This document shows, piece after piece, positions 1,965 to 57,046 of a DNA stretch of 64,000 bases. Location of the stretch: NCBI GenBank assembly GCA_902595195.1, contig CACJPC010000001.1, positions 17,173-81,172 of the forward strand, read 5' to 3'. The translations under genes were made by a program, and so were the position numbers. The notes beneath the pieces were generated by a model. It saw only the letters and a list, made by a program, of their open reading frames with translations, was not told where the DNA came from and searched no databases. Source of the stretch: an uncultured Candidatus Actinomarina sp. (GTDB taxonomy: Bacteria > Actinomycetota > Acidimicrobiia > Actinomarinales > Actinomarinaceae). Every line of letters begins with the position of its first letter. Position 1 is the first letter of the stretch.

Positions 1965-1975
1965 AATAAATCTCC

Positions 1976-2401: not shown

Positions 2402-2413
2402 TTTTATATACCT

Positions 2414-2701: not shown

Positions 2702-2772
2702 TTTTCTCCTATGGACACTTGTACGTGGCTTCTTTCGAAGCAGGTACTAATTAATTTAATACTAAATATGTA

Positions 2773-7012: not shown

Positions 7013-7099
7013 AAAAAAATGTTATCAACAAGTAACAGATTGTCACTAATTTTTTATAAAATCTGTAGAAATTTCTTTGTAAACTGATACTTTAGAACT

Positions 7100-24424: not shown

Positions 24425-24561
24425 TCGATGAGGAACTTAATTGTCATTAAGACCACATCCTACTCCACCTTACTTTCCTCTAAGCAGGTTGGCAGAATAA
24501 TTTCTTATTCACTCCTGATGCTTAATTTAATTTTATTATATTCCTGACATAAGACAAAAAT

Positions 24562-38800: not shown

Positions 38801-39244
38801 CAGAAATTAGATTTAAATACCGAAAGTATTGATTCGAACTCAGGCTCATTAGACATTCTACATTTTCATTTAACAGAGTTTGAAGAAATATTTAATAAAG
38901 AACCAAAAGAAGACGGTTCAAATGCAGAACTGTTAGGCATTTATTCTAATGAATATTTGGTAGGCTTTAAATTGTTGAAAGACGGTGAAGAAAATGGATT
39001 ATTAATAAATCCTATCAATTTCCCACAAGTATTAGAAAGTCTCTTTTTTGGAAATAGCTTATCTATAGAAACTTATGACAAACAACTAGACACTCTCAAT
39101 AAATTATTGAACTTTTATTTAGATATAAAATACCCGAGCTTGCTACCAGTTCATCATTTAATTTCATTTATTGAAAACGAAATAAGTCAAGAATCGTTTG
39201 ATAGAGAATTAAAAGAAAAGGTAATAGGCAGAGTTACTCTGTAA
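35879..39244 (+). CDS. Fusion protein: N-terminal PLD/HKD nuclease domain + SNF2-family (SF2) helicase/translocase (TTG start)
   Basis: HKD motif WHPKMYLLEDGDGNKIAASGSGNMSESG (36290-36370). SNF2 motif I DEVGLGKT, motif II LVIDEAHHAR, motifs V/VI CSSAASEGLNLQ and LEQRIGRIARLGQ. Confidence 0.82.
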   Translation: MSYKDLRLRKTVEGSGKLLNNVIKPSLKENTKTFRALTAYYSIGSLEAIGKTLDYFLSNDGIIQIVIGDQVDDERTLKGASEELQKEEIVIFQKKLQEDVELVRNENSRFTIATIAYLILDEKLQLKVANYRNGELWHPKMYLLEDGDGNKIAASGSGNMSESGFEKNYEIHDIFTNWDFGTEYFSSEDPSEPTKEEIFWRIWNNNDENTEVKELDKEYAQKLLERIGNPSKEDVIKYVDQKVKDNQNENLLNFKKDLQTSPIFHEFNLGKSALYPHQINAVQKALKMWPIRILFSDEVGLGKTLELGTLIAYLIKNNLVDNVLVLAPPTLTEQWQDEMKQHFDLDFARYDRTKKSWVYKDEEFEGIKENSPLRYNDNFPSLAIMSKSMAVRSNEQHIFLENDSYPDFLVIDEAHHARMHRGYDGSAKKTNFRRVVEQISNEIKHIAFATATPMRKNIDEYFFLLDLLGVEELISEKDYEKSLSIINDFYTDRNNKFNLDDLSLIKDLLIKVIDKSEERFFHNSPEIYSLVNELKNGEVDNAWLFENSKKLIEFHTIYHPTRILTSRNVQENLNKFSEIYKIPKRTLRPSPILPIDISNELNDFFSSIMEYVDRFYQITELAITPDKQLPLGLRRHSLQERFASSFWSAKKSITNRREHLINSLEGFKENKITKEFFENSDEDDDEDTIIAGLTKSELVSVDWENVIKNCESEIRALNTYVDLAEIVINSTPEGIDPDPKINETVRLFSEHIDKNPGKPLLIFSKYTDTLNEVERAVISYCETNDIYMGYASYRGDYRRIKYANDREHRKAEKRDITRALNNGRIQVIFCSSAASEGLNLQAASYMINVDVPWVPSDLEQRIGRIARLGQKEDEVLIDNIWYPFSIESNMYKRLIDRQRDMSFAIGQFPDLIAEAIKNFVDDKDAKKIEKTIDEINKKKNTYEMKVLNELWIQDGNEPLHPWGNVFRKEILEIMQKLDLNTESIDSNSGSLDILHFHLTEFEEIFNKEPKEDGSNAELLGIYSNEYLVGFKLLKDGEENGLLINPINFPQVLESLFFGNSLSIETYDKQLDTLNKLLNFYLDIKYPSLLPVHHLISFIENEISQESFDRELKEKVIGRVTL

Positions 39245-40212: not shown

Positions 40213-41958
40213 ATGGGTAAAGCGACATTTTTTGAGGGAGAATATCCAGAATCAAACACTTCTGAAAAAAAGGTTGCAGAAATTTTAAAAAAATTTTCAA
40301 ATGAATGGACAATTTTTCACTCTGTAAAAGTTCATGATCCCGAAACTGAAAAGCTAACAAATACAGAAATTGACTTTTTACTTATTCATCCTGCATATGG
40401 ATTTATACAGATAGAGGTAAAAGGGAAAGGATACCAAACAGATGAGGAGGGTAATTGGTTTATAAAAAAAGGACCAAATAAAGAAAAAGTAGCTTCTCCA
40501 ATCGATTCACTTGGTGAAAAACAATCTAAGATAATGAAAACTTTCCTGTATCACAATAAATCTATAAAGGGAGTAGATCTTTTTAATGTAAATGTACCCA
40601 TAATATCACTTATGTTTTGGACTGACTTAAAGCGTGAAGATCTACCAATTGCAGAAGTTTCAGAAGTAAATTCTTACTTTGTTGAAGATATATTTATTCC
40701 GGTTGAGAGTCTTGAAGAAAATTTGTTACAAAAAATGCGGAAACATATAAAAATAAATAAAAAAATAAAATTTGATAAAAACAAGTGGTTGTCTCCATTC
40801 TTAGGAAAACCCTTTGTTACAACAGTTATTACTATTTTTAAACCATATCAAAAGAGTTATAAATTAAAGTCAGCAACAGGTAGAACTAGTAATGAATTAG
40901 AACTTGCTACACAAGAACAGATTGAGCATTACAAGATACTAACTGACAGCAGTTACAAACGTCATCTTGTAAGTGGTCCTCCAGGAAGTGGAAAGACTGT
41001 GTTAGCTAAAGCTATAGCTAGGGAAAGAGCAGAAGATGGTAAAAAAGTACTTTTTATGTGTTTCAACAGGGCATTAGCTGATGAGATTGATTTTGAATTT
41101 AGGAAAGAAGAAAATATTGAAGTCTTGTCTATGTGGAAGTATTTTAAACTACTTGGGATATCGTGGGAAGATACTGTTGAGCATGAGGGTAAGAAAATTG
41201 TACTTCAAAAACTGCCTCCCCATATTTCATCAACGTATATAGCGAAATTGTTAGAAGAAAAAATAAATGATGCTGTAGATAATTTTAAATTTGACATTCT
41301 GCTTATTGATGAAGCGCAGGATTTTTCTGAAAAATATTGGGATTTTTTTAAATTACTTTTTGCTGAAAAGCCTGAATCAGCTTGGTATTTATTTTTTGAC
41401 ACAAACCAAGCTCTTACACACCCTGAATGGTCGCCTCCACTATTTGAAATACCTCATTCAAATTTACCCCTGACTTATATATTGAGATGCACTGAAAACA
41501 TATCTCATAAAGTACAGAATATATTTGAATCTAAGTTTGGCTTCAAGGGAATTACTGGAGAAGAACCTGAATTTTTAGTTGTAAATGAATCATCATGGGA
41601 CAACTCTTTGGAAGAATTAGTGAAGCTATTAAAAAATCTTATAGACATTGAACATTTTTCTCCAAAACAATTATCAGTGCTGGTGCCTCACTCACGAGAT
41701 ATAGATTTGGTAAAAGGTTATAAATATGATGAAGAAAGCTCTATTGAATCTAAAAAAATTAATGTATCTTCAGTGTATAAATACAAAGGATTAGAAAATG
41801 ATATTGTTATAGTCGTCATACCTAGCTGGGATTCGTTAAATGCCGATTATATACTTCAACCCCTTAGTCTTGCCTATGTTGGCTTTTCGAGAGCAAAGAC
41901 TAAATTATATGTCATAGGAGATAAAAAAATCCAAAAAGAAATAAATTGGAATAAATAA
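40213..41958 (+). CDS. NERD-domain nuclease fused to an SF1 (UvrD/AAA_11-12-like) helicase
   Basis: NERD: KKVAEILKKFSNEWTIFHSVKV...EIDFLLIHPAYGFIQIEVKG. Helicase: GPPGSGKT (Walker A), LIDEAQDF (Walker B), SSVYKYKGLENDIVIVV, GFSRAKTKLYV. Confidence 0.8.
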   Translation: MGKATFFEGEYPESNTSEKKVAEILKKFSNEWTIFHSVKVHDPETEKLTNTEIDFLLIHPAYGFIQIEVKGKGYQTDEEGNWFIKKGPNKEKVASPIDSLGEKQSKIMKTFLYHNKSIKGVDLFNVNVPIISLMFWTDLKREDLPIAEVSEVNSYFVEDIFIPVESLEENLLQKMRKHIKINKKIKFDKNKWLSPFLGKPFVTTVITIFKPYQKSYKLKSATGRTSNELELATQEQIEHYKILTDSSYKRHLVSGPPGSGKTVLAKAIARERAEDGKKVLFMCFNRALADEIDFEFRKEENIEVLSMWKYFKLLGISWEDTVEHEGKKIVLQKLPPHISSTYIAKLLEEKINDAVDNFKFDILLIDEAQDFSEKYWDFFKLLFAEKPESAWYLFFDTNQALTHPEWSPPLFEIPHSNLPLTYILRCTENISHKVQNIFESKFGFKGITGEEPEFLVVNESSWDNSLEELVKLLKNLIDIEHFSPKQLSVLVPHSRDIDLVKGYKYDEESSIESKKINVSSVYKYKGLENDIVIVVIPSWDSLNADYILQPLSLAYVGFSRAKTKLYVIGDKKIQKEINWNK

Positions 41959-41959
41959 C

Positions 41960-43414
41960 CTAAAGTAAGCTTGCTAGCCAATCATGCAGTAAATATAAGT
42001 TTTTACAATCTGCTTTGTTATATTCAATAATTAAATCTTTTAATTCATGTTCCTCATTAAAAAAATAATCTTCAAAATACTGAATTGATTCCATTCCAGA
42101 TTGTAGATCTTCAGTTCTATTTATACCTGCTAACTTTTCAACTGTTTTTAAGGAGTAAGAACTTGCTCCAATTAACAAAGAAGAATTGACTATTGTAAAT
42201 AAGTCTACAAAACATTTTTTTTCAATAAGTTGTTCTAATTCCTTTTCATACATACCAAAGTTCTGAGCAGATCTTCTCAGAGATGAAATTTCGTAACTAA
42301 AGTAGTGATAAAACTTTGCATCAGGATACAGTTCTAAATGTTCAAGTAATTTTTCTATAAAGCTAACAAAAGAATGTTTTTCTTCTTCTTCGTCATCAGA
42401 CCAGTAGTAAGTGAAACTATCATTTTTGTCATTACTCCAAATGCCATAGAGGTATTCAAAATTTCTACCAATAGTTAAAAACGGGTACCCCTCAAAATCG
42501 ATATATAAGTCTCTTTTTTTAGGTTTTAGTAATCCATTTAAAGATGGATCTTTTATTTCATATAAAATTTTATTTTCAGTTGAGTCATTAAGAAGCTGGG
42601 CTAATTTTTTGTACTTAATAAATGTAGCCTCGCCCATGCCGTCAATTTTTTCTAAATTAGTATTTTTTAAATCTTCAACAGTTTTGATGTCATTGTTTTT
42701 TAATTTCTCAATCTGTTTAGCTTGAATTCTATATAAAAGTTCGAGGCCGTTATCTCTAATCCAAATTTTTTTGGCTTCATCATCGTACTCTTGGAGTTGT
42801 TCCCCTTTCTTTGGGTATGGTGGCGCTTCAGGATCGTATGAATTGTTGAAGTCCATAAACTGATTTTTAAGTTCCGCATAGATTTCCTTGTGTTCATCAA
42901 ATTCAACTTTATGCATTTGCAAATCTCCAAGAAACAAAAAACATTCCGTTACTTGTTTTTTGGTAACTGTTTCAAGAATTTCTTTGTAAACAAATAGTTG
43001 CATAATATGTTCTGTTTTTATTGAAGATGAAAGCTTTGCATCAATTATGTGTAAGTTGTCATCTACTATTTTTACAAAATCTAATCTTCCGACGAAATCT
43101 TTTGAAGAAATATAAGGTTGAAAAATAACATCAGGGTTTTTCTCAAGTTCTTTTAAAAACACTTTGTTTGAAGAGTCTTTATTAGACATATCAACAACAT
43201 TTAAATTTTCTGAAATTCTATATTTGTCTTTTAAAACAACCTCATGCTCTTGCGCTTTTGTTAAAAGCTGTTTAGAAATTAATTTTGAAGTATTAATTTG
43301 TATTTTGTATTTAGCATCAATTTTTTTCTCATCTACAAGTTTGTTTGTTTTATTACACCAGTAGCTAAAAGGTGAATTGTAGAATCTAATAAATTCTGAT
43401 ACGCTATGAGGCAT
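41960..43414 (-). CDS. RecB/Cas4-like PD-(D/E)xK nuclease + RNase H-like exonuclease domain (TM0106-family architecture)
   Basis: N-terminal SVSEFIRFYNSPFSYWC, then GRLDFV...HIIDAKLSS...QLFVYKEIL (D...D/ExK...QxxxY). The C-terminal half has LYIDFEGYP (DxE exonuclease motif) and YNKADC. Confidence 0.6.
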   Translation of the reverse strand: MPHSVSEFIRFYNSPFSYWCNKTNKLVDEKKIDAKYKIQINTSKLISKQLLTKAQEHEVVLKDKYRISENLNVVDMSNKDSSNKVFLKELEKNPDVIFQPYISSKDFVGRLDFVKIVDDNLHIIDAKLSSSIKTEHIMQLFVYKEILETVTKKQVTECFLFLGDLQMHKVEFDEHKEIYAELKNQFMDFNNSYDPEAPPYPKKGEQLQEYDDEAKKIWIRDNGLELLYRIQAKQIEKLKNNDIKTVEDLKNTNLEKIDGMGEATFIKYKKLAQLLNDSTENKILYEIKDPSLNGLLKPKKRDLYIDFEGYPFLTIGRNFEYLYGIWSNDKNDSFTYYWSDDEEEEKHSFVSFIEKLLEHLELYPDAKFYHYFSYEISSLRRSAQNFGMYEKELEQLIEKKCFVDLFTIVNSSLLIGASSYSLKTVEKLAGINRTEDLQSGMESIQYFEDYFFNEEHELKDLIIEYNKADCKNLYLLHDWLASLL

Positions 43415-46400
43415 TTAAATCAATTAAGTTAACATCTTTGGATGATTTGCTTAATGCCTCAGCAAATACCTCGTCGTGTGTAAGAACAACAATTTGTGTT
43501 TCTGTTGCTAAGTCTTCTAAGACTTTAATAAAGCCTGCTTGTGAATTCCTGTCTAAATGATCTGATATATCATCGTAGAATAGTGGAAATCTAAAATCTG
43601 AATTTTTAAAAGTTTCAAGTTGCACTGCCATCCTTACTGCTAAGGCAATTGCTGCTTGTTCTCCATCACTGTGTAGGTGAAGCTCTTTATCTCTTGTATT
43701 TTCTTTAGATACTTGATATTTCACACTTAAAATATCTTCTTCTTCGTCAAACTCAACACCTGATAAATTTGGATTAATTTTATTGATGATGGAATTTATT
43801 CTCTTTTTTAAATCAAGTGTTATATTTGCTGTGTTCTTCAATTGCTCATCAACTAAATAAAGCGCTAATACTGTTGAAAGATATTGTTTTCTTGCTTCCT
43901 GCCACTCCCTCAAAATCTTATACTTTTCAGAAAGTAAATCTTCCTTTTTGTAATCCGGTTCTGTAAATAAAGCACCTTCTAAACTGCTAAGTTCTAGTTT
44001 TTTATCTTCTCTTTTTGATATTGTCTCTTCTAGTTCATCGTCTATTTCATCAGAATTGACTAAAAGAGTATCAATAGTAAGTTCACTTGATAATATCTTC
44101 TTTGCAAACTGATCTTTTTCAGATTTCTTAAAAAAGTTAAGCTCATTATCATCGAATAAGGTTTCTAGTTGTTCTAGTACTAAAATCACACTTTCTATTT
44201 CATCAAGAGATTCTGCATCATATGTGCTTAGGATGTTCTTATTCATTTTTTCAGCGTCTGTTATATATTTTTTGGATTCTTTGATTTCTGCTTCTAGTTG
44301 TTTTTTATTCTCAAGTTCTTCCTCTAACTTGGATATTGAATTGTTAAAATCTTCAATGTGGCTTTGAAGAGAAGTTCTTTCTAGTTCTTCTATTTCTAAA
44401 TCTTTACTAATAGGTTCTAGTAGTTTTTTTAGGCTTTTCTTCTTAGAGTTCAGATCTGTAGTGAGACTATTGAGTTCTAGATTTTGCTCTTCTAAATTTA
44501 ATGTGTATTGATTTAAATCAACTAAAAGATCTAATTGTTCTTCTAAATCTTCACTTTCCATAAAAGCTTTCGAAACTTTATATTTTTTTATTAATTCATC
44601 AGACGCTTTTTTAATTTCTGTGATGCCTTCTTTCTTTTTGCTTAATTCTTTTTCTAACTTGCTCTTTGAATCATTTAAGGTATTTAATTCCTCTTCTAAA
44701 TCTATTAAGTCATCTAACTCATCGAAATAATAGGAGAAATCCGAGTCTTTAAGGGTTGCTTCACCCAATTTATATTTTTTTATGATTGTCTCATTTTTCT
44801 TTAAAATATTCCTTACATCAGAGGTATTTGTCTTTTCTTTGAGTTTTAAAATTTTGATTTCTTCTTCTATAGACTGAAACTGTAATCTTGCTGTTAAATT
44901 TTTAACTAGATTCTCATAATCATCATGAATTAAAGACACCTTAGACATTATCAATGTCTCATTTTCCAGAATAATATCTAATAGATCTTCTAATTTTTTT
45001 ATATCTTTATAAGATTTATGAACTTTTTTGAAGGTCTTTTGATTTTCTTCTAAAATGCTCTGGATAGATTCTGTAATTGAAAATATATCATCTCCTCTAA
45101 AGTCAATATGCTGTGTACCGGCTTTGTCTTCATTCAATCTTTTTAGCTTTTTCTTTGTCTCATTAGCGTTTTGTTTAATGTCAAGAATTTCTTGATTGAG
45201 TTTTTTCAACAACGTTTTGTCTTTTGCGGTTATTTTTTCTTTTTTTAATTGAGCTATTGTCTGAGGAGAAAAACCACAACTATCTATGGACTCTTTAATT
45301 TCTTGTTTCTTGTTTTTTATATCGATTTTAAGTTCTGCTATTTCATCTACTAAAGGTTGTGAATCAAATTCATTGATTTTGTTTGAAATTGTAAGTATTT
45401 TGTTTTTATCACTTTCTTTTAATTTAGTTTTTTTATAGTACGCAACACTTGTTTTTGTCAGATTTAACTCTTCTTCTATTTCCGTTAAGGCAGTTTCTAA
45501 ACTTTCAACTTTATCTATTTGTAAAAGAACCTTTTCGTTTGCATTTTCATACTCATCAAATGCACTGAGATAGGTGTCTATTTCCAATTCTTTTAAATTG
45601 GTCTTTTTGACTCCACCAATCCTTTCATCACACTCTTCCAATTGGATTTTTAAATCTACTAGATTATTTCCCTTCACTTCAACCCCTGAAATAGATTCAT
45701 TCAAATTTTTATAATCCGATTCTATTTTTACGAGCTTATGGGTTTTATAAGAGTTGGTCTTAATGTTTTTCTTTTGAAGAGAATTTAGTGAATCTAGTAA
45801 TTCTCCAATATTTTCAATATGTTTTTGTTGAATTTGTATTTCTGTTTTTGTAGATTCCAGTTCACTAATTTTTGTATTCAAGCTTACTATGTCTTGCTTT
45901 AACTTAGCTATGTCCTCTTCATCATTTTTAGATAAATTATCTCTATTTTCTTTCTCTGTTTTTTCAAGGTCTTTTAGCCTTTCGTTTACATCTTTTAAAT
46001 TGTTTTGGAGCTCTCCAATTTTTGTTAGGTTTTTAGTTCTTGTTGCACTCTCTGTTTTATCTGTCAACTTAGTTGCATGCTCAGCATAAGACATAGCGGC
46101 TTCTTCAACATTTTGAGACATTGAACCTGACGCCACACTTATTAACTTTATTAAATCATTTCTTATGTTTTTATCTAACGAGATTGAACCTTGTATGTCT
46201 GAAATCATCTTTGTTGATGTAAAAAAGAAGTTTGAAAATAATCTTCGCATCTTCTCAACATCTTCTATTTGAGGATATATATTTTTTATCTGTTCATTAA
46301 TATTTTTGTCCCACTTACTTCTTGAAATTGAAAGCTTGTCTCCATTGCTGTCAATATTTAAGATAACCCCTCCGGATCCAATTTCTGTTCGTGACACTGC

Positions 46401-46601
46401 AGTTGGTCCGTCATAATCATATTGAAAATAGTGATCGCTTTTTGTAGGTATTCCAAAAAGCAAATGATAAAGAGACTTCACAATAGATGATTTGCCAGAA
46501 CCATTATCTCCAAGCAAAACATTTATATTAGGTTCGAATGAAATTGGCTTAAAGTCAGTTAGGGCACCATATTTTAGGATTGATAATTCTTCAAACTTCA
46601 T
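43404..46601 (-). CDS. SMC/Rad50/SbcC-like ATPase with a very long coiled coil (YhaN/SbcC-like)
   Basis: Walker A LLGDNGSGKSS at the N-terminus, then about 800 aa of heptad-rich E/K/L sequence. C-terminal signature LHSDGEQAAIALAVR, Walker B FPLFYDD and VVLTHDE. Confidence 0.78.
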   Translation of the reverse strand: MKFEELSILKYGALTDFKPISFEPNINVLLGDNGSGKSSIVKSLYHLLFGIPTKSDHYFQYDYDGPTAVSRTEIGSGGVILNIDSNGDKLSISRSKWDKNINEQIKNIYPQIEDVEKMRRLFSNFFFTSTKMISDIQGSISLDKNIRNDLIKLISVASGSMSQNVEEAAMSYAEHATKLTDKTESATRTKNLTKIGELQNNLKDVNERLKDLEKTEKENRDNLSKNDEEDIAKLKQDIVSLNTKISELESTKTEIQIQQKHIENIGELLDSLNSLQKKNIKTNSYKTHKLVKIESDYKNLNESISGVEVKGNNLVDLKIQLEECDERIGGVKKTNLKELEIDTYLSAFDEYENANEKVLLQIDKVESLETALTEIEEELNLTKTSVAYYKKTKLKESDKNKILTISNKINEFDSQPLVDEIAELKIDIKNKKQEIKESIDSCGFSPQTIAQLKKEKITAKDKTLLKKLNQEILDIKQNANETKKKLKRLNEDKAGTQHIDFRGDDIFSITESIQSILEENQKTFKKVHKSYKDIKKLEDLLDIILENETLIMSKVSLIHDDYENLVKNLTARLQFQSIEEEIKILKLKEKTNTSDVRNILKKNETIIKKYKLGEATLKDSDFSYYFDELDDLIDLEEELNTLNDSKSKLEKELSKKKEGITEIKKASDELIKKYKVSKAFMESEDLEEQLDLLVDLNQYTLNLEEQNLELNSLTTDLNSKKKSLKKLLEPISKDLEIEELERTSLQSHIEDFNNSISKLEEELENKKQLEAEIKESKKYITDAEKMNKNILSTYDAESLDEIESVILVLEQLETLFDDNELNFFKKSEKDQFAKKILSSELTIDTLLVNSDEIDDELEETISKREDKKLELSSLEGALFTEPDYKKEDLLSEKYKILREWQEARKQYLSTVLALYLVDEQLKNTANITLDLKKRINSIINKINPNLSGVEFDEEEDILSVKYQVSKENTRDKELHLHSDGEQAAIALAVRMAVQLETFKNSDFRFPLFYDDISDHLDRNSQAGFIKVLEDLATETQIVVLTHDEVFAEALSKSSKDVNLIDLNAS

Positions 46602-47941
46602 TAATCATCCTTGTAACTTAAGCCGTTTATTATTCTTGAAGCTATTTTTTTAGAATTGTTAATAATTTCTGAAGACTCTTGTTCATCTATTTCCTCTGAA
46701 ATAAACTTTTGTTCTGTGAGGGGAATAGATTTTGGCAAAATACCAAACTTTTTATTTAAATTTTTTTTAAATTCTTTTTTGGTTAAATGATCAAAAACAG
46801 TCTCGTTAATAAAGCTTTCTAAATCGTCTATATCTAGACCTTCTAGTTCTGTAACTATAGATTCTATTGCTTCTAGTGAGTCTTCTTTGGTAGAGGGTTT
46901 TAGTTTATTTATACATTTTATGATATTTAAATCTTCATATTCTAACTCCTCATTAAGACTTGTTAAGAGCTCTTCTTCTAAAATAAGGTTGTAATAGTCA
47001 GATTTTCCTTCTAATTCGACTGTTATCATCAAAAACTTACCTGGGTTTTCATTCTGAATTGATTCAATTTTTTTGACAGTATTATTAACAATCTCACTTA
47101 TGTCTTGATCTTTTTTGACTTCTGTTACTGCTGTAAAAAACCTAGCATCATCTAATGGCTTAAATGTTAACTCTGGTTCAAAGTTTTTTACTTCAACTAA
47201 ATAACACCCTTTTCCATCTGAAATATCATTACAAGTTTCAGACGGTTTAGTGCTTAGCCCCTGTGGATTTCCAGGGTAGACAGCTAAATATGGATCTTGA
47301 ATGAGAATTTCTCTTTTGTGGATATGTCCAAATGCCCAGTAATTATATTCACATTTATCCAACATAGCTTTATTTGTCGGAGCATAATTATGTGTTTCAT
47401 CAAGCTTATATGTATTTTCATAACTTGTATGAATTAAACCAATGTTGTAGAAATCTTTAACTGGTTTTGGAAACTTTTCTACAAGTTTTTCTGTTACTAC
47501 TTTTTTTGGGTAGCTTTGACCGTGGATAGCTACTTTAAAATTATCAATAGTAAAAGTATCTGCATTTTTAGCTGGAAATACATAAGTGTTTTCAGGTAGC
47601 TTTTTTGCTTCAAAAGATGTTAATAAATCAGAATCAACATCATGGTTTCCTAAAACAATGTATATGTCAATATTTAATTGGTCTAACTTTTTTAAAAAGT
47701 TTTTAAATTTTTTAAAATAATTGTCACTAGAGGGCATATCGTCATCAAATGTATCCCCAGCGAGAAGAATGAAATCTGGTTGCTCTTCTTCAGCTAAAGC
47801 AACTAGGTTGTCGAGAACCTTAATGGGAGAACGTCTTGCTCGAATTTCTTGGTGAGGATCCAGAAAGCTATATTTTTTTGTTATTTCTCGCCCTATGTGT
47901 AGGTCAGAAATGTGAATAAATTTAAATTCTTTACCCGCCAT
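46601..47941 (-). CDS. Mre11/SbcD-like calcineurin-fold metallophosphoesterase (YhaO-like)
   Basis: FIHISDLHIG, LLAGDTFDD, VLGNHD and FGHIHK are phosphoesterase motifs I-IV/V. 1-nt overlap with the SbcC-like gene. Confidence 0.8.
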   Translation of the reverse strand: MAGKEFKFIHISDLHIGREITKKYSFLDPHQEIRARRSPIKVLDNLVALAEEEQPDFILLAGDTFDDDMPSSDNYFKKFKNFLKKLDQLNIDIYIVLGNHDVDSDLLTSFEAKKLPENTYVFPAKNADTFTIDNFKVAIHGQSYPKKVVTEKLVEKFPKPVKDFYNIGLIHTSYENTYKLDETHNYAPTNKAMLDKCEYNYWAFGHIHKREILIQDPYLAVYPGNPQGLSTKPSETCNDISDGKGCYLVEVKNFEPELTFKPLDDARFFTAVTEVKKDQDISEIVNNTVKKIESIQNENPGKFLMITVELEGKSDYYNLILEEELLTSLNEELEYEDLNIIKCINKLKPSTKEDSLEAIESIVTELEGLDIDDLESFINETVFDHLTKKEFKKNLNKKFGILPKSIPLTEQKFISEEIDEQESSEIINNSKKIASRIINGLSYKDD

Positions 47942-48009: not shown

Positions 48010-48507
48010 ATGGTTAAGGTAGAAACAAGAATTCAACTAGCAATTAAAGAGATTCTTGAAGAAGAAACATGGAAACACCTAAAAACAAACAACAATTTCG
48101 ATAAGGTTCTATCTATTGCTTCGTTAATTGAACCTTTCAATGAAGGTCCTGATGTTTGTTATGAAGACTGTAGAGGTATGTGTTTTGGTTGTTACGATGG
48201 CTACAAATACTCTCTTGATTGGAGAGCAAATTATAACCTTAGAACAAAAAAACCTTTTAGTCTAATCACAGTTCACGAACTTGATATGTTGATTGATGCT
48301 TTAGATGACAAGGTACACAAATGTAATGAGTGGTGTTCAGATTTTATTTGTTATAAATATAAAAGCAAAACATGTTCAGTCATGGATTGTCATAATTTAT
48401 ATATTAAAAAAAACAAAAATTTAAAGTATTGTTCCTGGTGTAGACAGCAAAGCTGGCCAATTTATAGAAATAATTATTTGATTAAAAATGGACTACACGA
48501 AATCTAA
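48010..48507 (+). CDS. Cys-rich hypothetical protein (165 aa)
   Basis: CYEDCRGMCFGCYDGY and CNEWCSDFICYKYKSKTCSVMDCH...CSWCRQ. No family recognised. Confidence 0.45.
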   Translation: MVKVETRIQLAIKEILEEETWKHLKTNNNFDKVLSIASLIEPFNEGPDVCYEDCRGMCFGCYDGYKYSLDWRANYNLRTKKPFSLITVHELDMLIDALDDKVHKCNEWCSDFICYKYKSKTCSVMDCHNLYIKKNKNLKYCSWCRQQSWPIYRNNYLIKNGLHEI

Positions 48508-48600
48508 AGATAACAATAAGAACTACGATAATTGTATAGGAAAAAAAATGTTTTAAAACAAATATTGATATCAAAAGTTTCAATTATATAGAATTAAACT

Positions 48601-49539
48601 ATGGCAGAAAAAAACTTAAGTAGAAATCTGAACGCAGCAAAAAGAAATAAAGAAGACGAATTTTATACTCAGCTAGATGACATCAATAAAGAACTGCAAC
48701 ATTACAAAAAACATTTCAAAAATAAAATAATTTATTGCAATTGTGATGATCCAAGAATTAGTAACTTCTTTAATTATTTTTCTTTAAATTTTGAACATCT
48801 TGAGTTGCAAAAACTAATCACAACATGTTACAAGAACCAAGATTGGAATTTATTTTCAACGGACCAGTCGGAAAGTGCGGTATATCTTGAATACGAAGGT
48901 GATAAGAATAATAATAGAGTTCCAGATCCAGAAGAAATTGGTGTACATAAATTAAAGGGAGATGGTGACTTTAGAAGTGATGAGAGTATTGAATTGCTCA
49001 AACAAGCAGATATTGTAGTTACCAATCCACCATTTTCGTTATTTAGAGACTACCTTGATCAGTTAATCAAATATGATAAAAAGTTTTTAATCATAGGTAA
49101 TATAAATGCAGTCTCATATAAGAACTGTTTCGAATATATTAAAGCAAATAAATTGTGGTTGGGCTACAACACTGTCCGACACTTTCAAAAACCTGATGGA
49201 AGCATGTATGAAACAGCAAGATCGTTTTGGTATACGAATTTAGATATTAAAAAAAGACATGAAGACTTCGTTCTATATAAGAAATATAACAAAGATGAAT
49301 TTCCAAAATATGATAATTATGACGCTATCAATGTAAATAAGGCTGTTGATATACCTCTTGACTATGACGGATTAATGGGTGTGCCTATAACTTTTCTTGA
49401 TAAATATAATCCTGAACAATTTGAAATTATTGGTATTGATAGACAGTTGGTTGAAGAAAAAACTGGAAAAGTAAGCAGGTTTTTTATAGATAACAAAGAA
49501 ATATATGCAAGAGTTATTATTAAGAATAAAAGATTATGA
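48601..49539 (+). CDS. N6-adenine DNA methyltransferase, EcoRI-methylase-like family (copy 1)
   Basis: N-terminal DEFYTQLDDINKEL...YCNCDDP...FFNYF and catalytic DIVVTNPPFS (NPPF at 49021-49035). The family was assigned from recalled PF13651-type N-terminal motifs. Confidence 0.8.
   Translation: MAEKNLSRNLNAAKRNKEDEFYTQLDDINKELQHYKKHFKNKIIYCNCDDPRISNFFNYFSLNFEHLELQKLITTCYKNQDWNLFSTDQSESAVYLEYEGDKNNNRVPDPEEIGVHKLKGDGDFRSDESIELLKQADIVVTNPPFSLFRDYLDQLIKYDKKFLIIGNINAVSYKNCFEYIKANKLWLGYNTVRHFQKPDGSMYETARSFWYTNLDIKKRHEDFVLYKKYNKDEFPKYDNYDAINVNKAVDIPLDYDGLMGVPITFLDKYNPEQFEIIGIDRQLVEEKTGKVSRFFIDNKEIYARVIIKNKRL
48832..49049. repeat. 218-bp block 100% identical to 49767..49984 (direct repeat, offset 935 bp)
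   Basis: Compared base by base. It also explains the two identical antisense track ORFs (48828..49025 and 49763..49960). Confidence 0.97.
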
Positions 49540-50537
49540 CAACTGGTAGTAATAATTCAAGCTTACGAAAAGCTGCAGCAACAAAAGCAGACGAATTTTA
49601 TACTCACCTTCCTGACATTGAAAAAGAACTTCAACACTATAAACCTCACTTTAAAGATAAAATTGTTTATTGCAATTGTGATGATCCAAGAATTAGTAAC
49701 TTCTTTAATTATTTTTCAATTAACTTCGAACATCTTGGATTAAAAAAGCTTATTACAACCTGCTATAAGAACCAAGATTGGAATTTATTTTCAACGGACC
49801 AGTCGGAAAGTGCGGTATATCTTGAATACGAAGGTGATAAGAATAATAATAGAGTTCCAGATCCAGAAGAAATTGGTGTACATAAATTAAAGGGAGATGG
49901 TGACTTTAGAAGTGATGAGAGTATTGAATTGCTCAAACAAGCAGATATTGTAGTTACCAATCCACCATTTTCGTTATTTAGAGAATATGTAGATCAGTTA
50001 ATCAAATATGATAAAAAGTTTTTAATAATTGGGCATCAAAATGCGATTACTTACAGAGAAATATTTAAGTTATTAAAAGAAGATAAAATATGGCTTGGCA
50101 ATTATGTAGGTGATATGTCATTTAAAGTTCCAGAAACTTATGAGGAAAAGAAAACAAGATTCTGGATTGATGAAACTGGCCAAAAATGGAGAAGTATGGG
50201 AAATACATGCTGGTTTACAAATCTAGAAATTGAAAAGAGAGAAGAAGAATTGATACTTTACAAGAAATTTAATAAAAATGATTTTCCATTTTATGACAAT
50301 TACGATGCAATTAATGTTGATAAAGTTTCGGATATTCCTTTGGATTATGATGGTTTTATGGGAGTTCCCATAACATTTTTACACAAACATAACAAAAATC
50401 AATTTGAGATTCTTGGCATAATGAATACAGGAGAAGAAAATAAAGGAATACGACTTCCAAATACTCCTCATGGTAGACCGTTGGTAAATGGTAAAGAGAA
50501 GTATTTAAGGGTATTAATAAGAAATAGAACATTATGA
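49536..50537 (+). CDS. N6-adenine DNA methyltransferase, EcoRI-methylase-like family (copy 2)
   Basis: DEFYTHLPDIEKEL...YCNCDDP and DIVVTNPPFS (49956-49970). ATGA overlap with copy 1. The C-terminal half differs from copy 1. Confidence 0.8.
   Translation: MTTGSNNSSLRKAAATKADEFYTHLPDIEKELQHYKPHFKDKIVYCNCDDPRISNFFNYFSINFEHLGLKKLITTCYKNQDWNLFSTDQSESAVYLEYEGDKNNNRVPDPEEIGVHKLKGDGDFRSDESIELLKQADIVVTNPPFSLFREYVDQLIKYDKKFLIIGHQNAITYREIFKLLKEDKIWLGNYVGDMSFKVPETYEEKKTRFWIDETGQKWRSMGNTCWFTNLEIEKREEELILYKKFNKNDFPFYDNYDAINVDKVSDIPLDYDGFMGVPITFLHKHNKNQFEILGIMNTGEENKGIRLPNTPHGRPLVNGKEKYLRVLIRNRTL
49767..49984. repeat. 218-bp block 100% identical to 48832..49049
   Basis: See the partner repeat. Confidence 0.97.
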
Positions 50538-51643
50538 AAATACAACCTAAAAACATAAAAATCTCAGATTTAGTTAAAGAATATGTCAACAATGACGAAG
50601 AAGGTGTTATCGGATATGGAGGAAAATTAAATATTAGACCTAAATACCAAAGAGAATTTGTATATGGAGAAAAAGAAAGAAATTTAGTTATAGATACAGT
50701 TTTCAAAGGATTTCCCTTAAGCGTGTTTTACTGGGCAGTTAACGATCAAGAGGGATATGAGATAATTGATGGCCAACAAAGAACTATCTCAATATGCGAA
50801 TTTGTTGCAGGTAACTTTTCCATAAAGCATCCTCTAAATAACAGTGACGTCTATTTTCACTCTCTTCAACCTGATGAAGTAAAAAAAATATTAGATTATA
50901 AAATTTCAGTATATTTATGCGAAGGTGAAGCCAGTGAAAAACTTGCTTGGTTTGAAGTTATTAATATAGCCGGAAAAGTACTTACAGATCAGGAACTAAG
51001 AAATGCAGTATATTCTGGACCATGGGTTTCTGATGCAAGAAAATACTTTAGTAAGACTAGGTGTTACGCATCTAACGTTGCTGGTGATTATTTAAGTGGA
51101 AGAGCAATAAGGCAAGACTATCTTGAGACAATAATTAAATGGATAAGCAATAATGATATAAATAAATATATGAGTAAACATCAGTATGATAATGATGCAA
51201 GCGAGCTAAAAGAGTACTTTGATAATGTATTTGAATGGGTAAAGAGAATTTATCCGAACTACAGAAAAGAAATGAATGGCATTGATTGGGGAATTCTTTA
51301 TAACACGTATAATGTACTTGAATTTGATTCAGAAGATTTAGAGAAAAAGATTCAAGAGCTTTACAAAAATGAAGAAGTTACAAAACAAAAAGGTATCTTT
51401 AGTTACTTAATTACAGGAGATGAAAGACATTTAAGTCTTAAAACATTTAATCCACAAGTAAAAGCACGGGTTTATGAAAAACAGTCTGGAATATGTATTC
51501 AGCCAGATGGTTGTGGAGAAGAATTTGAAATATCTCAAATGGATGCCGACCACATAATTCCATGGAATAGAAACGGAAAAACTGTAGAAGAAAATTGCCA
51601 ATTACTCTGTGCTTCTTGTAACAGAGCTAAGAGCGATCGGTAA
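50534..51643 (+). CDS. DUF262 (ParB/Srx-like NTPase, GmrSD-N type) fused to a C-terminal HNH nuclease
   Basis: RPKYQREFVY and IIDGQQRT (DGQQR at 50768-50782) are DUF262 hallmarks. The C-terminal DADHIIPWNRNGKTVEENCQLLCASCNRAKSD is an HNH motif (from 51542). ATGA overlap with methylase copy 2. Confidence 0.8.
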   Translation: MKIQPKNIKISDLVKEYVNNDEEGVIGYGGKLNIRPKYQREFVYGEKERNLVIDTVFKGFPLSVFYWAVNDQEGYEIIDGQQRTISICEFVAGNFSIKHPLNNSDVYFHSLQPDEVKKILDYKISVYLCEGEASEKLAWFEVINIAGKVLTDQELRNAVYSGPWVSDARKYFSKTRCYASNVAGDYLSGRAIRQDYLETIIKWISNNDINKYMSKHQYDNDASELKEYFDNVFEWVKRIYPNYRKEMNGIDWGILYNTYNVLEFDSEDLEKKIQELYKNEEVTKQKGIFSYLITGDERHLSLKTFNPQVKARVYEKQSGICIQPDGCGEEFEISQMDADHIIPWNRNGKTVEENCQLLCASCNRAKSDR

Positions 51644-51665: not shown

Positions 51666-52187
51666 TTAATAATCCTTGTCTCTTGGAGTTAGGGGTGCCC
51701 CATATTGTCTATATGGTGCTGCGTCTTCAATTCTTTTTTCACGCGCAATTCTCTCTTTATTAGTTTCTTTTAGATTCGTATCCTTATAATTCTTGATTCT
51801 CTGAAACTCTAAATTAAAAAATTCTAATTTTTTACTAAGCTCATCTTTATTAATTCTCAAGTTAGTTTGCTCACCCTGAATCTCGTCTAAAGTAAGTTGA
51901 ATGAGTTTTTTTAGTTTTTTAAGTAAACGAAGAAATTTTTTATCTGTTGATGTTGTTTTAAGTTGCTCAATCTCAGCCAGCCTATTTAAGAACTCATTTA
52001 CAATCTTTTTTAAACTGTCTTCATGAATAATTTCCATATCCGTCATGTTTTTTCCATATTTGATAAGATTTTCACGTCTCTCTTCATTCTCAACAGATTG
52101 TTTTTCTCGAATTAATCTCTCTTTATCAGTTTCACGGATACCAGTTTCTAACCAGTTTTTCATTTTCTCTTTTTTATTTTTATCCAT
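51666..52187 (-). CDS. Charged coiled-coil protein (173 aa), unknown function
   Basis: E/K/R-rich heptad-like sequence. Divergent from the Hsp70-like operon. Confidence 0.45.
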   Translation of the reverse strand: MDKNKKEKMKNWLETGIRETDKERLIREKQSVENEERRENLIKYGKNMTDMEIIHEDSLKKIVNEFLNRLAEIEQLKTTSTDKKFLRLLKKLKKLIQLTLDEIQGEQTNLRINKDELSKKLEFFNLEFQRIKNYKDTNLKETNKERIAREKRIEDAAPYRQYGAPLTPRDKDY

Positions 52188-52527: not shown

Positions 52528-54778
52528 ATGGGTAAGCAAGCTTTAGGGTTTGATTTTGGAACATCCAACTGTACAGTGTCAATTTTTGACTCTGATAAAG
52601 GGATAGTCGAAACACTACCTATCTCAAACTATTCAGACACAAAAAAGCGAAGCCAAGCTAATCAATCTTTATTCCCTTCAAAGGTGGGCCTCAATGATGA
52701 ATTAGAATGGGTATTTGGTGATGATACAAGAAATTGTGAAAGAGATTTTGTATGGGATAACTCTAAAAGACTATTAGAACACAACACCCCAATTTATAGA
52801 GGAGGAGTTCACAAGAAACCTGTCTGGGTTGCAATAGGGATAATGGGTGGAATATTTAAAGAACTAAAAAATCTATCAATAAAAACATCTTTACCCATGG
52901 TAATTACAGTGCCAGCTAACTCATACAGTACACAAAGAAGTCTCACAAGATTGGCAGCAGAGACTTATAACTTTAATGTAGATCAGTTAGTATCTGAGCC
53001 ATGCGCTGCAGCATTAGGTTGCTATAAGAACATAGAGAGTTTAAAGAATATTTTAATAGTTGATGTGGGTGGCGGCACAACAGATATAGCATTAATTGAA
53101 AATGATTTTGGTACGTTAAAAGAGATAGCAATTGAAGGCTTGAAGAGATTTGGCGGTATAAATATTGATCAAAAATTATATGAGGCGTATAAAGAAGAGT
53201 TTGAATTATCTACTGATTCAGAGAAATTACTTTTTAGAGATTTACTTGAAGATGTAAAAATAGAGCTGTCATCCAAAAAGAACTCCAAATTAATTTTTTA
53301 AAGACAAAGTAGTAGACATCACAAGAGAAAACCTTGAAAAATTAATTAAAAAAGATATTGAAAGTTTAGATAAAACTATTGATAAGGTTTTAAAAAAAGG
53401 TAAGGTCGAGTTAAAAAATGTAGAAGCTGTTTTACCTATTGGAGGCTCATCTAATATTCCTGCAGTAAGAGAGCTTTTGAAAAAAAAGTTTAAATCAAAA
53501 TTAATAAATCTTGATTTTGATGAGGCAATTACTGCAGTTGCAAAAGGTGCAGCAATAGCTTCCGCTATAAACACTGGAATTATTAAAGATCTTAACTTTC
53601 AACAGTGTCTGGAGCATAGTGTTGGTCTCAGGGTCTGGAGTGGCACTAAAGAAAATAAGATTTTTAAAGCCATGTTAGAAAAAGGTTCTGTATTTCCAGC
53701 ATCCGCAGTAGAAACTTTTATATCAGATACAGATGAATCTATAGTTGCTTTATATGAAAGTACTTCAGGCAAGTTAAAAAACAACGATACAAAATTAATT
53801 ATTGAAAAAAGAATTAAAACTGGAGTTATGCATGTTGATGTTGAGCTCACTTATGATGACGATGGAAAAATAGATATTAAAACATACAACATTAATAAAG
53901 ATGAGAGGGGAAAGTTAGGAGATTTAGGAGATAGTAGTAAAGACTCGCAAGGATACATCAAAAATTTACAAGCTAAATCTCGTGAACAAGGAATGGACTT
54001 AAAGATAGATAGTATCAAATATGTTGACTCACAATTAAATCAAAAGAAATTAAAAGAATGGTCAAACGAATTCCTGGGGAAATATAAAAAATATAAAAAA
54101 GTATCTGAGAAGGTAAAAAATATTTTTAAAAAAGAAGCAAAGGATGATTTTATTTCTATTAATAATGAAGACATCTCCAATGTGGTTGTTGAAGATAGTC
54201 CTGATATGGAGTTTGGAAGTACAAACGATGCATTTATGTATGCTGAAGGTATTTTAAAACGCACCTTAAGACTTGTTTTTACATATGCAGGGTATGAAAA
54301 AATACATCATTTTAGAGGTATTCATGACTTGTTAAGTGAGCGTGATGTAATTTACAAAACAAGAGAAAGGTTGTTTCCAGAGCAGCCATTAGACGACAAA
54401 AGATGGTTAATTAAAGTACTTCTGAAGTCAAGATATTTACAAAATCTAGGACATACAAACACTAATGAGGTTAAGGGAAGCCTTGACTCTTTAAGAACAA
54501 TTCTAAATAAATTTAGCCATGGAGTCAGATCTGGTTTTTTTTCAGAAGTATTTAATGATTCTTTAGATGAATATGACTCACTAATTGAAAGCAATATATT
54601 AGAAGAGGTATACAAAGAATCAACATATACAGCACAAGATGTTGTTTTACTTTCATCAAATATAGTTTCGTTAATCTCTTCTTTAATTAACACAAAAGTA
54701 TACACGGGACAAGAGAGAGAAGATCTAATACAAATGCTAGAAAGTATGCATACTTTAGTACAAACATATAAAGAGTAA
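52528..54778 (+). pseudogene. Hsp70/DnaK-like protein (NBD + beta-sandwich SBD) with a non-chaperone HEPN-like C-terminal domain, split by a one-base frameshift in a T6 run (53294-53299)
   Basis: Frame 1: ALGFDFGTSNCTV (phosphate-1), VSEPCAAAL, LIVDVGGGTTDIALI (phosphate-2, 53062-53085). After the shift, frame 2 opens at 53294: FKDKVVDITRENLEKL..., LPIGGSSNIPAVRELL, DEAITAVAKGAAI, then the SBD-like HVDVELTYDDDGKIDIKTYN. The tail has RYLQNLGH (54431-54454) and LRTILNKFSHG. Removing one T restores about 750 aa. Confidence 0.7.
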
Positions 54779-54783: not shown

Positions 54784-55569
54784 ATGATTTTCAAAAAAAG
54801 AAAGCTTGAAAACCTTAAACTATCTCAAAAGGAAGAAATAGATAATTTAAAAAATGAGCACATCAAATTAAAAAAAAAGCTACTTGATGATTTTGATAAA
54901 GAATCAAAAGAATTAGATACAAGATTAAAAGCAGATATCAAAGATACAAAAACATTACAGAAAAAAGAAATAGATAAAATTAAAAAATTGCATAAGAAAA
55001 CTGTTGAAGAACTATCTAGTAAAAACGCAGAGGAATTGGAAAAAAAGAAATCAATTTATAGACAGAAATTAGAAGATTGGAAAGTTAAAGCTGATAAACA
55101 TTTGCAAAATGAAATCGATAAGTACAAAAAAAACTTAGAAAAAGAACAAAAGAAGAAAGAAGAGCTTGAAAAACTAGAGATAGAAAAGAAAATGGAGAAA
55201 GAAATCTCTTCATTTCTAGAAAAGTTTGAGAAACAAAAACAGAGTGAATTAAAAAAACTAGAAAAAAAGTACCAGGATACCGAACTCCTCACAAAGCAAT
55301 TACAAAAATATTTCTCCGACTTTTTGGGAAAAGAATATAGTGATGTTTCTTTTAAAGAACTTGAAAAAATATTAAAAAATGAACTTGAAGAACTTGTTGA
55401 CGAAATTGATGAGGTTAAAAAAGAAATAGAAAATAAGAATGAAGTAGTTAAACAATTTAATGAGTTTGCTAAAGAAATGGATTATTTACATGAAGAAATA
55501 CTAGACAAAAAGAATGAACTTTATGAACTAAAACAAGCAATTAGAGCACTTAAGAAAGAAAGCAGTTAG
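54784..55569 (+). CDS. Lys/Glu-rich coiled-coil protein (261 aa)
   Basis: Almost entirely K/E/L heptads. Starts 5 nt after the Hsp70-like stop. Confidence 0.5.
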   Translation: MIFKKRKLENLKLSQKEEIDNLKNEHIKLKKKLLDDFDKESKELDTRLKADIKDTKTLQKKEIDKIKKLHKKTVEELSSKNAEELEKKKSIYRQKLEDWKVKADKHLQNEIDKYKKNLEKEQKKKEELEKLEIEKKMEKEISSFLEKFEKQKQSELKKLEKKYQDTELLTKQLQKYFSDFLGKEYSDVSFKELEKILKNELEELVDEIDEVKKEIENKNEVVKQFNEFAKEMDYLHEEILDKKNELYELKQAIRALKKESS

Positions 55570-55647: not shown

Positions 55648-57046
55648 CTATAAAGGTTCTCCATTAAGATAGTTTCTTTGATCATAAATTTGACCATTTT
55701 CATGATATTTTATATGTAAACCTTCTTTCTTGCCTTCTTTAAACTTTCCTTCTTCCCATAACTGACCATTTTCGTAAAAATATTCTAAATAACCATTGAG
55801 TTGATCATTTTTCCAACTGCTTTTTTCCATCAACTGACCATTTTCATAAAACTTTTTTAAATGGTCCGTGTAACTCCCCGTTTTGATATGTTCCCTCAAT
55901 CCAAATTTTGCCACTTTCGTAAAATCTTTTATATGGTCCTGTAAGAAAAAGGCCATCATAAACTCCTTGAAATTCTAACTGACCATTCTCGTAATATCTT
56001 TCTACAACACCCTCTCTGAAAAGTCCGTTTAAGCTCTGAAATCCCTTTTCCCGTAAAATACCATCTTCATGGTATTTTTCATAAGGACCAGTTTTCTCAC
56101 CATCCTTATAATTTCCCGTCTCAATTAAGTTGCCTTTTTTACTATATATGTAGTAGGGTCCATCTATTACATGGTCATCCTTGTAGAATATTTTTTCTTT
56201 TAACACACCATTGTCATGGAAAGTTTCTTTTAGTCCATCAAGAATATTTTCTTTAAAAGAAGTTTTTATATTTAAGTTACCATTTTCATGATAGGTTATA
56301 TCCAAACCATCTTTCTTGTCCTCTTTATAAATTCCCTCTCTCTTAATCTGACCATTTTCATAGTAGCTTTCATATGGGCCCTCTTTTAATCCGTTTGCGA
56401 TTGTATATTTTGTATGGATCTGACCATTTTCATAGTATGTTTCATATGGGCCATCTTTTAGAACTCCTTTTGAGTAAACAGCTTTTCTGATTAGTTGACC
56501 ATTTTCATAGTAACTTTCGTAAGGGCCATCGAGCCTTGAATTATATACTTGGCTCTCTCCGAATCCATAAGTCTTATCAATATAATCTGTCTCTTCTTCA
56601 GTAAATTTTTTATATATGTAAGACCCTTTTTCTTCTAATTGACCATTTTCATAATATTTTTCAAATGCACCTACTGTGACTTTATTTTTGTATTGACTTT
56701 TTTCTTCAATCTGACCATTTTCATAAAAAAGTTCATATGGGCCATCTTTTAATCCATTTTTGATTATAAATTTTTCTTCAATCTGACCATTTTCATAGTA
56801 ACTTTCGTAAGGGCCGTCTTCTAATACTCCTTTTGAGTAATTGAACTTGAATTTTATTGAACCATTTTTATGGTAACTTTCGTAAGGGCCGTCTTTTTCA
56901 CCATTTTTGATTGTAAATTTTTCTTTTAGTTTTTTTTCAGTTTCAGAGTAATAATTGACAACAATACCGGTAAATGGAGATTTAGAATCAAGCTCATAAG
57001 CAACATTATCTCTCCAATCAAGATCGTAATATTCAATTTCTTTCAT
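55648..57046 (-). pseudogene. MORN-repeat (MORN_2 / YwqK-like) protein, split by a one-base frameshift in a homopolymer (plus-strand T6 55853-55858)
   Basis: More than 15 copies of the YYENGQ(I/L)xxK...G..DGPYE(S/T)Y unit. Track ORFs 55844..57046 and 55648..55959 overlap. Removing one base turns ...HGPFKKVL* into ...HGPFKKFYENGQL, continuing the repeat register. Confidence 0.7.

Follow-up and report, generated by a model that had tools for sequence, protein, structure and literature searches.

We analyze a 64,000-nucleotide (nt) stretch of DNA from an uncultured Candidatus Actinomarina sp. (contig CACJPC010000001.1 of assembly GCA_902595195.1, positions 17,173 to 81,172; hereafter, the window), in which three overlapping genes at 48601-51643 encode two EcoRI-family N6-methyladenine (m6A) methylases, M1 and M2, and a nuclease, R, with an N-terminal DUF262 domain, a helical middle and a C-terminal HNH domain. 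Judged by sequence comparison, the operon is a restriction-modification (R-M) cassette of a widespread family that pairs an EcoRI-family m6A methylase with a DUF262-helical-HNH nuclease, and that is already catalogued as R-M in PADLOC but biochemically undescribed. Across related loci, two loops of the methylase are exchanged, or the methylase gene is switched by simple repeats, beside a nuclease that stays nearly constant. We give a probability of roughly 0.5 to the reading that R is targeted or licensed by its methylase, following the logic of Type III Mod/Res or Type IIG systems rather than that of classical Type II enzymes.

A putative restriction-modification operon

The three open reading frames (ORFs) lie on the + strand as one overlapping unit: M1, an EcoRI-family N6-adenine methyltransferase of 312 amino acids (aa), at 48601-49539; M2, a second such enzyme of 333 aa, at 49536-50537; and R, a DUF262 (ParB/Srx-like NTPase)-helical-HNH endonuclease of 369 aa, at 50534-51643. 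Stop and start codons overlap as ATGA at 49536-49539 (M1/M2) and 50534-50537 (M2/R). The initial annotation of the window had listed these overlaps, and its coordinates agree with ours base for base; it had also taken the genes for an R-M operon with an atypical nuclease, a description that is upheld by the tie between the DUF262-HNH protein and methylases (an upstream methylase in 59/59 related loci, see below).

Hidden Markov model searches of all three proteins support the family assignments. Both methylases cover positions 1-345 of the Pfam profile EcoRI_methylase (PF13651), M1 with 400.9 bits (E 6.8e-120) and M2 with 456.3 bits (E 9.9e-137) against a curated cut-off of 26.4, and both match the PADLOC partner profile MTase_II (PDLC03297; E 4e-114 for M1). 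Motif IV of EcoRI-family methylases, (N/D)PP(F/Y/W), is present in each as TNPPF; its NPPF, read from the sequence, lies at 49024-49035 in M1 and 49959-49970 in M2 (both + strand) and is invariant in methylase alignments. The two proteins are 65% identical overall, but this figure averages 92% over residues 17-166 and 49% from residue 167 to the end, which bears out the near-identical N-terminal and differing C-terminal halves noticed in the initial annotation. Within the similar half, a 218-nt tract of M1 (48832-49049, +) is 100% identical in DNA to one of M2 (49767-49984, +), the two copies forming a direct repeat 935 nt apart.

Alignment of related methylases places two variable loops in the C-terminal half, loop A between WLG and W(F/Y)TNL and loop B between FEI(I/L)G and the last strand (M2 numbering). 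Loop A of M1 spans residues 189-209 (49165-49227, +) and is of a short type shared with the related loci L002 and L003; loop B spans residues 279-298 (49435-49494, +). In M2, loop A covers residues 188-225 (50097-50210, +), a predicted long beta-hairpin in the AlphaFold2 (AF2) model (mean predicted local distance difference test score, pLDDT, 84.8), and loop B covers residues 295-325 (50418-50510, +). When k-mer avoidance was examined in 351 kb of flanks plus the window, no single candidate target site stood out; there was only a general depletion of 4-bp palindromes, with GATC, GGCC and CTAG at ~0.7.

R combines PF03235 (GmrSD_N/DUF262) at residues 33-160 (50630-51013, +; E 3e-19), including DGQQR at nt 50768-50782, with PF01844 (HNH) at residues 326-369 (51509-51640, +; E 5e-14), including D339-H340 at nt 51548-51553. 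The DUF262 and HNH hallmarks first read from the letters (RPKYQREFVY, DGQQR and DHIIPW...N...CASCNRAKSD) are all present. Among 26 R homologues, Q39, R40, F42, Y44, DGQQR, D339, H340, P343, W344, N354 and N363 are invariant, and D339, H340, N354 and N363 satisfy the D/H-H...N...N/H residue pattern of HNH/His-Me finger nucleases. In the cysteine set of the HNH domain, C321 and C327 are likewise invariant, C359 is nearly so and C362 is replaced in some homologues. The C-terminus matches the HNH profiles PF01844, PF14279 and PF13395, not DUF1524 (PF07510). The PADLOC profile REase_II (PDLC03418) is matched by R end to end, with E 1e-123 over profile positions 1-368 of 372. The Pfam and PADLOC E-values for M1, M2 and R are far beyond chance.

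The AF2 model of R (pLDDT 84.5) has a beta-rich N-terminal domain, a helical middle (residues ~165-300) and a small C-terminal domain. Compared with the Protein Data Bank (PDB) by Foldseek, it gave weak matches to BrxU (7p9k; E 5e-3, the best), ParB-CDP (6sdk), Noc and sulfiredoxin. PDB matches at the sequence level were confined to the HNH part, where McrA (6ghc) and the HNH protein 4h9d are similar over ~60 residues. We found no solved structure for a member of the M or R family.

An abundant family with linked methylase and nuclease genes

Relatives of R that share words at E <= 1e-5 make up at least 7999 clusters (90% identity) from many phyla, and an exhaustive search of 1.84 billion representatives gave 402 clusters (50% identity) at E <= 1e-30. 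The best 120 relatives are nearly all ~360-370 aa long, and the same two domains occur in every match listed. NCBI names them "DUF262 domain-containing protein" (R) and "adenine-specific methyltransferase EcoRI family protein" (M). The pair occurs at full length on 43-44 plasmid records and is almost the sole cargo of 7.5-11 kb plasmids of lactobacilli, pediococci and enterococci; the family is also seen in Campylobacter and Mollicutes. Phage records rarely carry it (four full-length matches). Given this abundance, and since PADLOC already profiles the nuclease as a Type II REase, the "new class" entertained in the initial annotation was overstated.

The Pfam RE_* families, NCBIfam, and PDB sequence and Foldseek comparisons hold no specific name for the R family, and our literature search found no published biochemistry for the DUF262-HNH/EcoRI-methylase family. 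The origin of the R-M profiles is not stated in the PADLOC paper. MhoVII (PMC12898733), considered as a characterised relative, proved to be of a different family, in which an AlwI-like nuclease accompanies a YhdJ+Dam fusion.

To quantify linkage, we scanned metagenomes with an alignment of R, which gave 80 loci, and counted the 59 with at least 1100 bp upstream of R. In all 59, an EcoRI-family methylase gene lies upstream of R on the same strand; the two genes overlap in 24 and are no more than 21 nt apart in most of the others. Pairs on plasmids show the same arrangement. Genome contigs, scanned with the single R protein rather than an alignment as query, yielded one locus (L006). The linkage in 59/59 loci implies that R is a restriction component and not a free-standing Type IV enzyme, and it speaks strongly for an R that, lacking M, would be harmful or of no use.

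Exchangeable methylase loops beside a constant nuclease

We compared methylase loops across 45 loci with a complete M and a complete R. Where two loci have R proteins 80-93% identical and methylase N-terminal halves 79-91% identical, the C-terminal halves of the methylases fall into two classes, at 74-99% or 45-57% identity, and the difference is confined to loops A and B, with insertions and deletions. Locus L039 illustrates both classes: its R is 89% identical to that of L083, with a methylase C-terminal half 88% identical, and about as close to those of L063 (R 89%) and L038 (R 87%), with C-terminal halves of only 56% and 47% identity, respectively. Overall, R stays 85-93% identical across cassettes in which the loops have been swapped or the methylase toggled.

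The same split appears when pairs are taken at R identities of at least 70% (120 locus pairs). Loop A identity falls under 40% in 84 pairs and reaches 60% or more in 32; for loop B, 108 pairs fall under 40% and 11 reach 70% or more; identity of the N-terminal half is unimodal. The loops also reassort independently of each other, as in L016, which has loop B of L038/L068 and loop A of L001. Scanning R in 20-aa windows, we found no block that is consistently exchanged in step with the methylase loops: once overall R identity was allowed for, the strongest dependence of an R window on loop identity was 0.13 points per point (R 91-110, loop A). For a classical Type II pair, shifting what the methylase recognises while the nuclease keeps its old site is lethal. 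Loop swaps beside a constant R are instead the pattern of Type I and Type III systems, and they would tend to argue against the co-change expected of classical Type II.

Repeat-driven switching and methylase-nuclease fusions

Seven related loci carry hypermutable repeats inside the methylase gene, as six distinct tracts; in each of these loci R is intact, with DGQQR and the HNH residues retained. The tracts are G10 in L050 (position 3778), G9 in L027 (3776), (AG)13 in L037 (3756), (AG)18 in L052 (3464), (CGAC)8 in L053 (3539) and (TC)10 in the Campylobacter upsaliensis loci L091/L092 (L091:4911). R genes show nothing beyond runs of A9 and, in L094, a (TGA)4 triplet repeat that stays in frame; in the window's own genes, the repeat scan found no hypermutable repeats.

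In L050, L027 and L037, the repeat lies just 5' of the segment coding for the last strand, and two alternative methylase C-termini, a short one ending in PYFRILIR and a long one ending in KYARILIR, are encoded in overlapping frames. Both termini are kept across loci that are ~68% identical in DNA, and both states occur naturally, with the short terminus in frame in L050 and the long one in L027. In L052 and L053, a different frame runs open from the repeat almost up to R and encodes extra C-terminal modules, and several assemblies of C. upsaliensis have a methylase broken at the repeat while the R beside it is intact. Toggling a methylase by repeats beside a nuclease that acts independently should kill the cell, so these loci fit an R that needs M. 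Repeat switching is known from Type III mod and Type I genes (PMC5909438, PMC7383803), whose nucleases require the methylase.

In a few relatives, the two proteins are fused. P0391 (L098:4001-6154) is a 717-aa fusion in the standard code with NPPF, DGQQR and DH..N intact and no second methylase within 4 kb, and P0392 is N-terminally truncated with NPPF intact. A third fusion, P0277 (L095:3001-5067; 688 aa), comes from a host that reads TGA as Trp and has 7 in-frame TGA codons at conserved W positions; its methylase part has a degenerate TFPSF in place of TNPPF. Though few, these fusions offer Rosetta-stone evidence that M and R would work together physically. The L098 fusion is set among tellurite-resistance-associated conflict genes, at 853-3055 and 6304-8256 (C-C_Bond_Lyase, PRTase_2/TRSP, StiP/PELOTA_1 and ATPgrasp_Ter). 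A different kind of fusion, P0419 (632 aa; L099:4001-5899, L100:1138-3036), joins two EcoRI-family methylases with different loops, without R, in a phage-like replication module (primase-polymerase, sigma factor, AAA_24, DUF669), and probably serves the phage as self-protection against two specificities.

Origin of the twin methylases

The twin layout is rare: among the 80 metagenome loci, none carries a second full-length methylase gene. The closest relatives of R (82-85% identical), from L002, an NCBI metagenome-assembled genome, and from L003-L005, marine or estuarine metagenomes, each adjoin one methylase, of M1 type. The methylases of L002 and L003 are 78-84% identical to M1, which can be taken as the orthologue of the single methylase adjoining the closest R relatives. 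The C-terminal half of M2 has its relatives elsewhere: identity is 42% with the L003 methylase but 71-73% with those of L089 and L087. L089 pairs a single M2-type methylase with an R of the same family. L087/L088 is a second twin locus, in which the R-proximal, M2-like methylase is frameshifted into pieces of 83 aa and 279 aa (L087:3613-4667), and the distal methylase and R are intact.

In two loci from other samples, L096 and L097, the R and M2 genes match those of the window at 97-98% DNA identity, and L096 shares both ATGA overlaps. An assembly artefact, which we had considered for the twin layout, is ruled out by these recurrences. The methylase upstream of M2 in L096 is a different one, 60% identical to M1 and with different loop types, and homology with the window begins only 36 nt before the M1 stop codon. 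The initial annotation had read the twin methylases as a sign of a Type IIS or asymmetric-site system; the fixed methylase pair expected of such a system is absent from the closest relatives, from the 59 scanned loci and from L096. That a methylase of either type alone serves R, together with the exchangeable upstream slot, does not fit a fixed pair for an asymmetric site, and this part of the annotation is not supported.

The shared 218-nt tract records a more recent event. Between the M2 genes of the window and L096, identity is 99.5% before the tract, drops to 95.4% within it and returns to 98% beyond it, with 10/218 mismatches in the tract versus 8/784 outside (Fisher p = 0.0016). This excess implies that the two copies in the window were homogenised after the split from L096 and points to gene conversion, most simply by copying from M1 into M2. 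Over the N-terminal half, M2 is closer in DNA to the L003 methylase than M1 is (89.6% versus 81.4%), and yet it is M1 that holds the L003-type C-terminal half; both genes thus appear to be mosaics of a resident lineage and foreign loops. The twin state would have arisen by recombination between methylase genes, with partial homogenisation by gene conversion afterwards, and may be an intermediate in loop switching. By the same token, the 218-nt direct repeat could permit collapse to one hybrid gene.

Genomic setting

The operon sits in a cellular genome, in a low-GC stretch (28-31% versus 33-36% elsewhere) with defence-like genes around it. Just 5' of M1, a promoter-like site (TTGATA-18-TAGAAT; 48565-48594, +) matches the consensus at 10/12 positions, which is weak evidence: it is the joint-best match in the region, but such sites are no more numerous than in shuffled sequence. 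Upstream lie a GHKL ATPase (33552-35207), a PLD-SNF2 helicase (35879-39244; PADLOC PLD_Helicase/DrmD-like), a NERD-UvrD helicase (40213-41958), a Cas4/RNase_H_2-like protein (41960-43414), and an SMC-like ATPase with a weak LmuB match and an Mre11-like phosphoesterase (together 43404-47941). The NERD helicase and RNase_H_2 neighbours are also present at L003, whose R is a close relative. Directly 5' of M1, on the same strand, is a Cys-rich ORF of 165 aa (48010-48507) with no Pfam or PADLOC match; as a conserved upstream regulator it is ruled out, there being no counterpart 5' of the L002 methylase.

Downstream of the operon, Hsp70-like ORFs occupy 52528-54778. The first (52528-53301) is an Hsp70/actin-fold ATPase fragment of 257 aa, followed 175 nt on by a 433-aa ORF without a family match (53477-54778); together they may represent an Hsp70-like defence gene that is split or unusual. 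Lys/Glu-rich coiled-coil ORFs lie on either side of the pair, at 51666-52187 (- strand) and 54784-55569 (+ strand). Farther away, two adjacent overlapping ORFs at 55648-57046 (- strand) encode MORN-repeat variants (PF07661), with 8 repeats in a 400-aa protein, and a SAM-I/IV riboswitch lies at 24427-24526 (- strand; Rfam RF01725, 55 bits against a gathering score of 41.1).

Interpretation and alternatives

The reading that we favor, in which the methylase targets or licenses R, would work as follows. Loops A and B would set the sequence that is methylated; R, with no sequence reading of its own, would act only together with the methylase or under its licence; and the DUF262 domain would serve as a switch controlled by nucleoside triphosphate (NTP), by analogy with ParB, GmrSD, BrxU and SspE (PMC10952713, PMC12707154, PMC12065111). 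The window would then place ahead of one nuclease two methylases with a common catalytic N-terminal half, M1 with L003-type loops and M2 with L089/L087-type loops. Host DNA probably carries two m6A motifs, and R would attack DNA that lacks them. The broader proposal, that the family is a distinct NTP-dependent R-M type whose nuclease has no specificity of its own and is targeted or licensed by interchangeable methylases, with loops shuffled by recombination and frameshifting, is one that we advance tentatively, at somewhat short of an even chance.

Several points weigh against this interpretation. The need of R for M, M-R contact, NTP use and cleavage are predictions drawn from sequence comparison, as is methylation at two motifs. 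The "Type II REase" label in PADLOC may mean that some member of the family was already handled as a conventional Type II enzyme. Loops A and B could vary as an escape from phage inhibitors rather than to set specificity; the Foldseek search with the M2 model returned generic Rossmann-fold relatives only. Cells that live with a broken methylase might owe this to polarity on R expression, or to a further methylase encoded elsewhere in the genome. The R windows at residues 91-110 and 181-200 co-vary weakly with loop A, and a few specificity residues in R are therefore possible. Finally, there are only about three fusion clusters among thousands of separate M/R pairs.

The most serious alternative, albeit an unlikely one, which corresponds to the first option of the initial annotation, is a classical Type II or Type IIS system, in which R would read its own sequence independently of M and the two methylases would serve the two strands of an asymmetric site. 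Type II cassettes typically have this gene order, overlapping genes and a place on plasmids; the REase_II label points the same way; and twin methylases do recur (L087, L096), with the fused double methylase P0419 paralleling the fused methylases of Type IIS systems. However, P0419 lies in a phage-like module without R, a single methylase is enough in 59/59 related loci, and M1-type and M2-type enzymes each pair with R alone. The L096 locus is difficult to accommodate, as its M2 and R are 98% identical to those of the window and yet its upstream methylase is only 60% identical and has other loops. Moreover, loop swaps and repeat inactivation of M beside an intact R would be lethal if R acted independently.

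Alternatively, as in the second option of the initial annotation, R might work by sensing in the manner of SspE, with the DUF262 domain reading the m6A that its neighbours place on host DNA and then licensing the HNH domain against unmarked invading DNA. This would agree with the role of modified-DNA sensor ascribed to DUF262 in the literature on GmrSD, BrxU and SspE, would tolerate loop swapping if m6A were read in any sequence context, and is compatible with viability when M is off. We nevertheless consider it quite improbable: the M-R fusions, including the one with a degenerate TFPSF, point to a partnership at the protein level, and neither domain profiles nor the fold search recognised an m6A-reading module in R.

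There is a slim chance that one methylase is a passenger, that is, that M1+R or M2+R works and the other methylase, such as M2, is a remnant of recombination that may be nearing loss. The frameshifted R-proximal methylase of L087/L088 and the differing upstream slots of the window and L096 could be seen in this light, as could the deletion to a single hybrid gene that the direct repeat would allow. But M1 and M2 are both full length, with all motifs, and joined by ATGA, and L096 and L097, which come from other samples, also keep this M2 intact and overlapping in the same way. Lastly, an independent, modification-dependent Type IV nuclease of the GmrSD kind with the methylases as mere neighbours, which the DUF262 domain and the best fold match (BrxU) might suggest, is scarcely credible in the face of the 59/59 linkage with overlapping genes, the fusions to methylases with intact motifs, a nuclease domain of PF01844 rather than DUF1524 type, and the expectation that a nuclease cutting at m6A would be fatal to a host whose DNA is marked by the m6A methylase linked to it.

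If R does depend on M, the family would be a new R-M type in which a ParB-like switch takes the place of a helicase motor and specificity is modular and phase-variable, and multi-methylase loci like that of the window would let one nuclease restrict on several motifs. DUF262 nucleases have so far been seen as sensors of modified DNA, and a large family coupled to m6A methylases widens the role of the domain; the obligate coupling means that R presumably attacks unmodified DNA. These considerations bear on phage defence, plasmid biology and epigenetic phase variation, and the family is a possible source of retargetable enzymes.

Comparison with known systems

PADLOC describes the same gene pair (REase_II PDLC03418 and MTase_II PDLC03297) as a predicted Type II R-M system, where the profile is a label only. 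Among characterised enzymes, M.EcoRI shares its Pfam family (PF13651) and the NPPF motif with M1 and M2; R.EcoRI, a PD-(D/E)XK enzyme, is unrelated to R. The HNH Type II enzymes KpnI, Hpy99I, PacI and MnlI, as well as McrA, have the beta-beta-alpha-metal HNH site that R has, but we know of none among them with a DUF262 N-terminal domain.

In domain order, R resembles GmrSD, BrxU and SspE, which also have an N-terminal DUF262 domain with (I/V)DGQQR, a helical middle and a C-terminal His-Me finger nuclease (PMC10952713, PMC12707154). The nuclease of those proteins is of the DUF1524 type, whereas that of R is a PF01844 HNH domain with a four-cysteine (Cys4) zinc site. They act on modified DNA or sense phosphorothioate without an m6A methylase partner, in contrast to R and its methylase in 59/59 loci. 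Their DUF262 domains are described as sensors of modified DNA (PMC12065111, PMC9646914, PMC12707154), and a 2025 analysis merely speculates that ParB-DUF262 proteins may target unmodified genomes when methylases are nearby (PMC12065111). The defence proteins NsnA of Menshen (E 1e-28) and PD-T4-2_A (E 3e-15) match residues ~30-285 of R, that is, DUF262 and the helical region; these two and HEC-05, a further DUF262 defence protein, have other partners and no coupled EcoRI-family methylase.

In organization, there is a parallel with Type III systems (Mod/Res, e.g., EcoP15I). These share with the family an exchangeable recognition region of the methylase between conserved flanks and a conserved, NTP-binding nuclease subunit encoded downstream; Type III mod genes also share with the related loci simple-sequence repeats in the methylase and viability when it is switched (PMC5909438). 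The components differ, as Res combines a superfamily 2 (SF2) helicase-like ATPase with PD-(D/E)XK and Mod is a beta-class methylase, while the family described here uses DUF262 with HNH and a methylase of PF13651.

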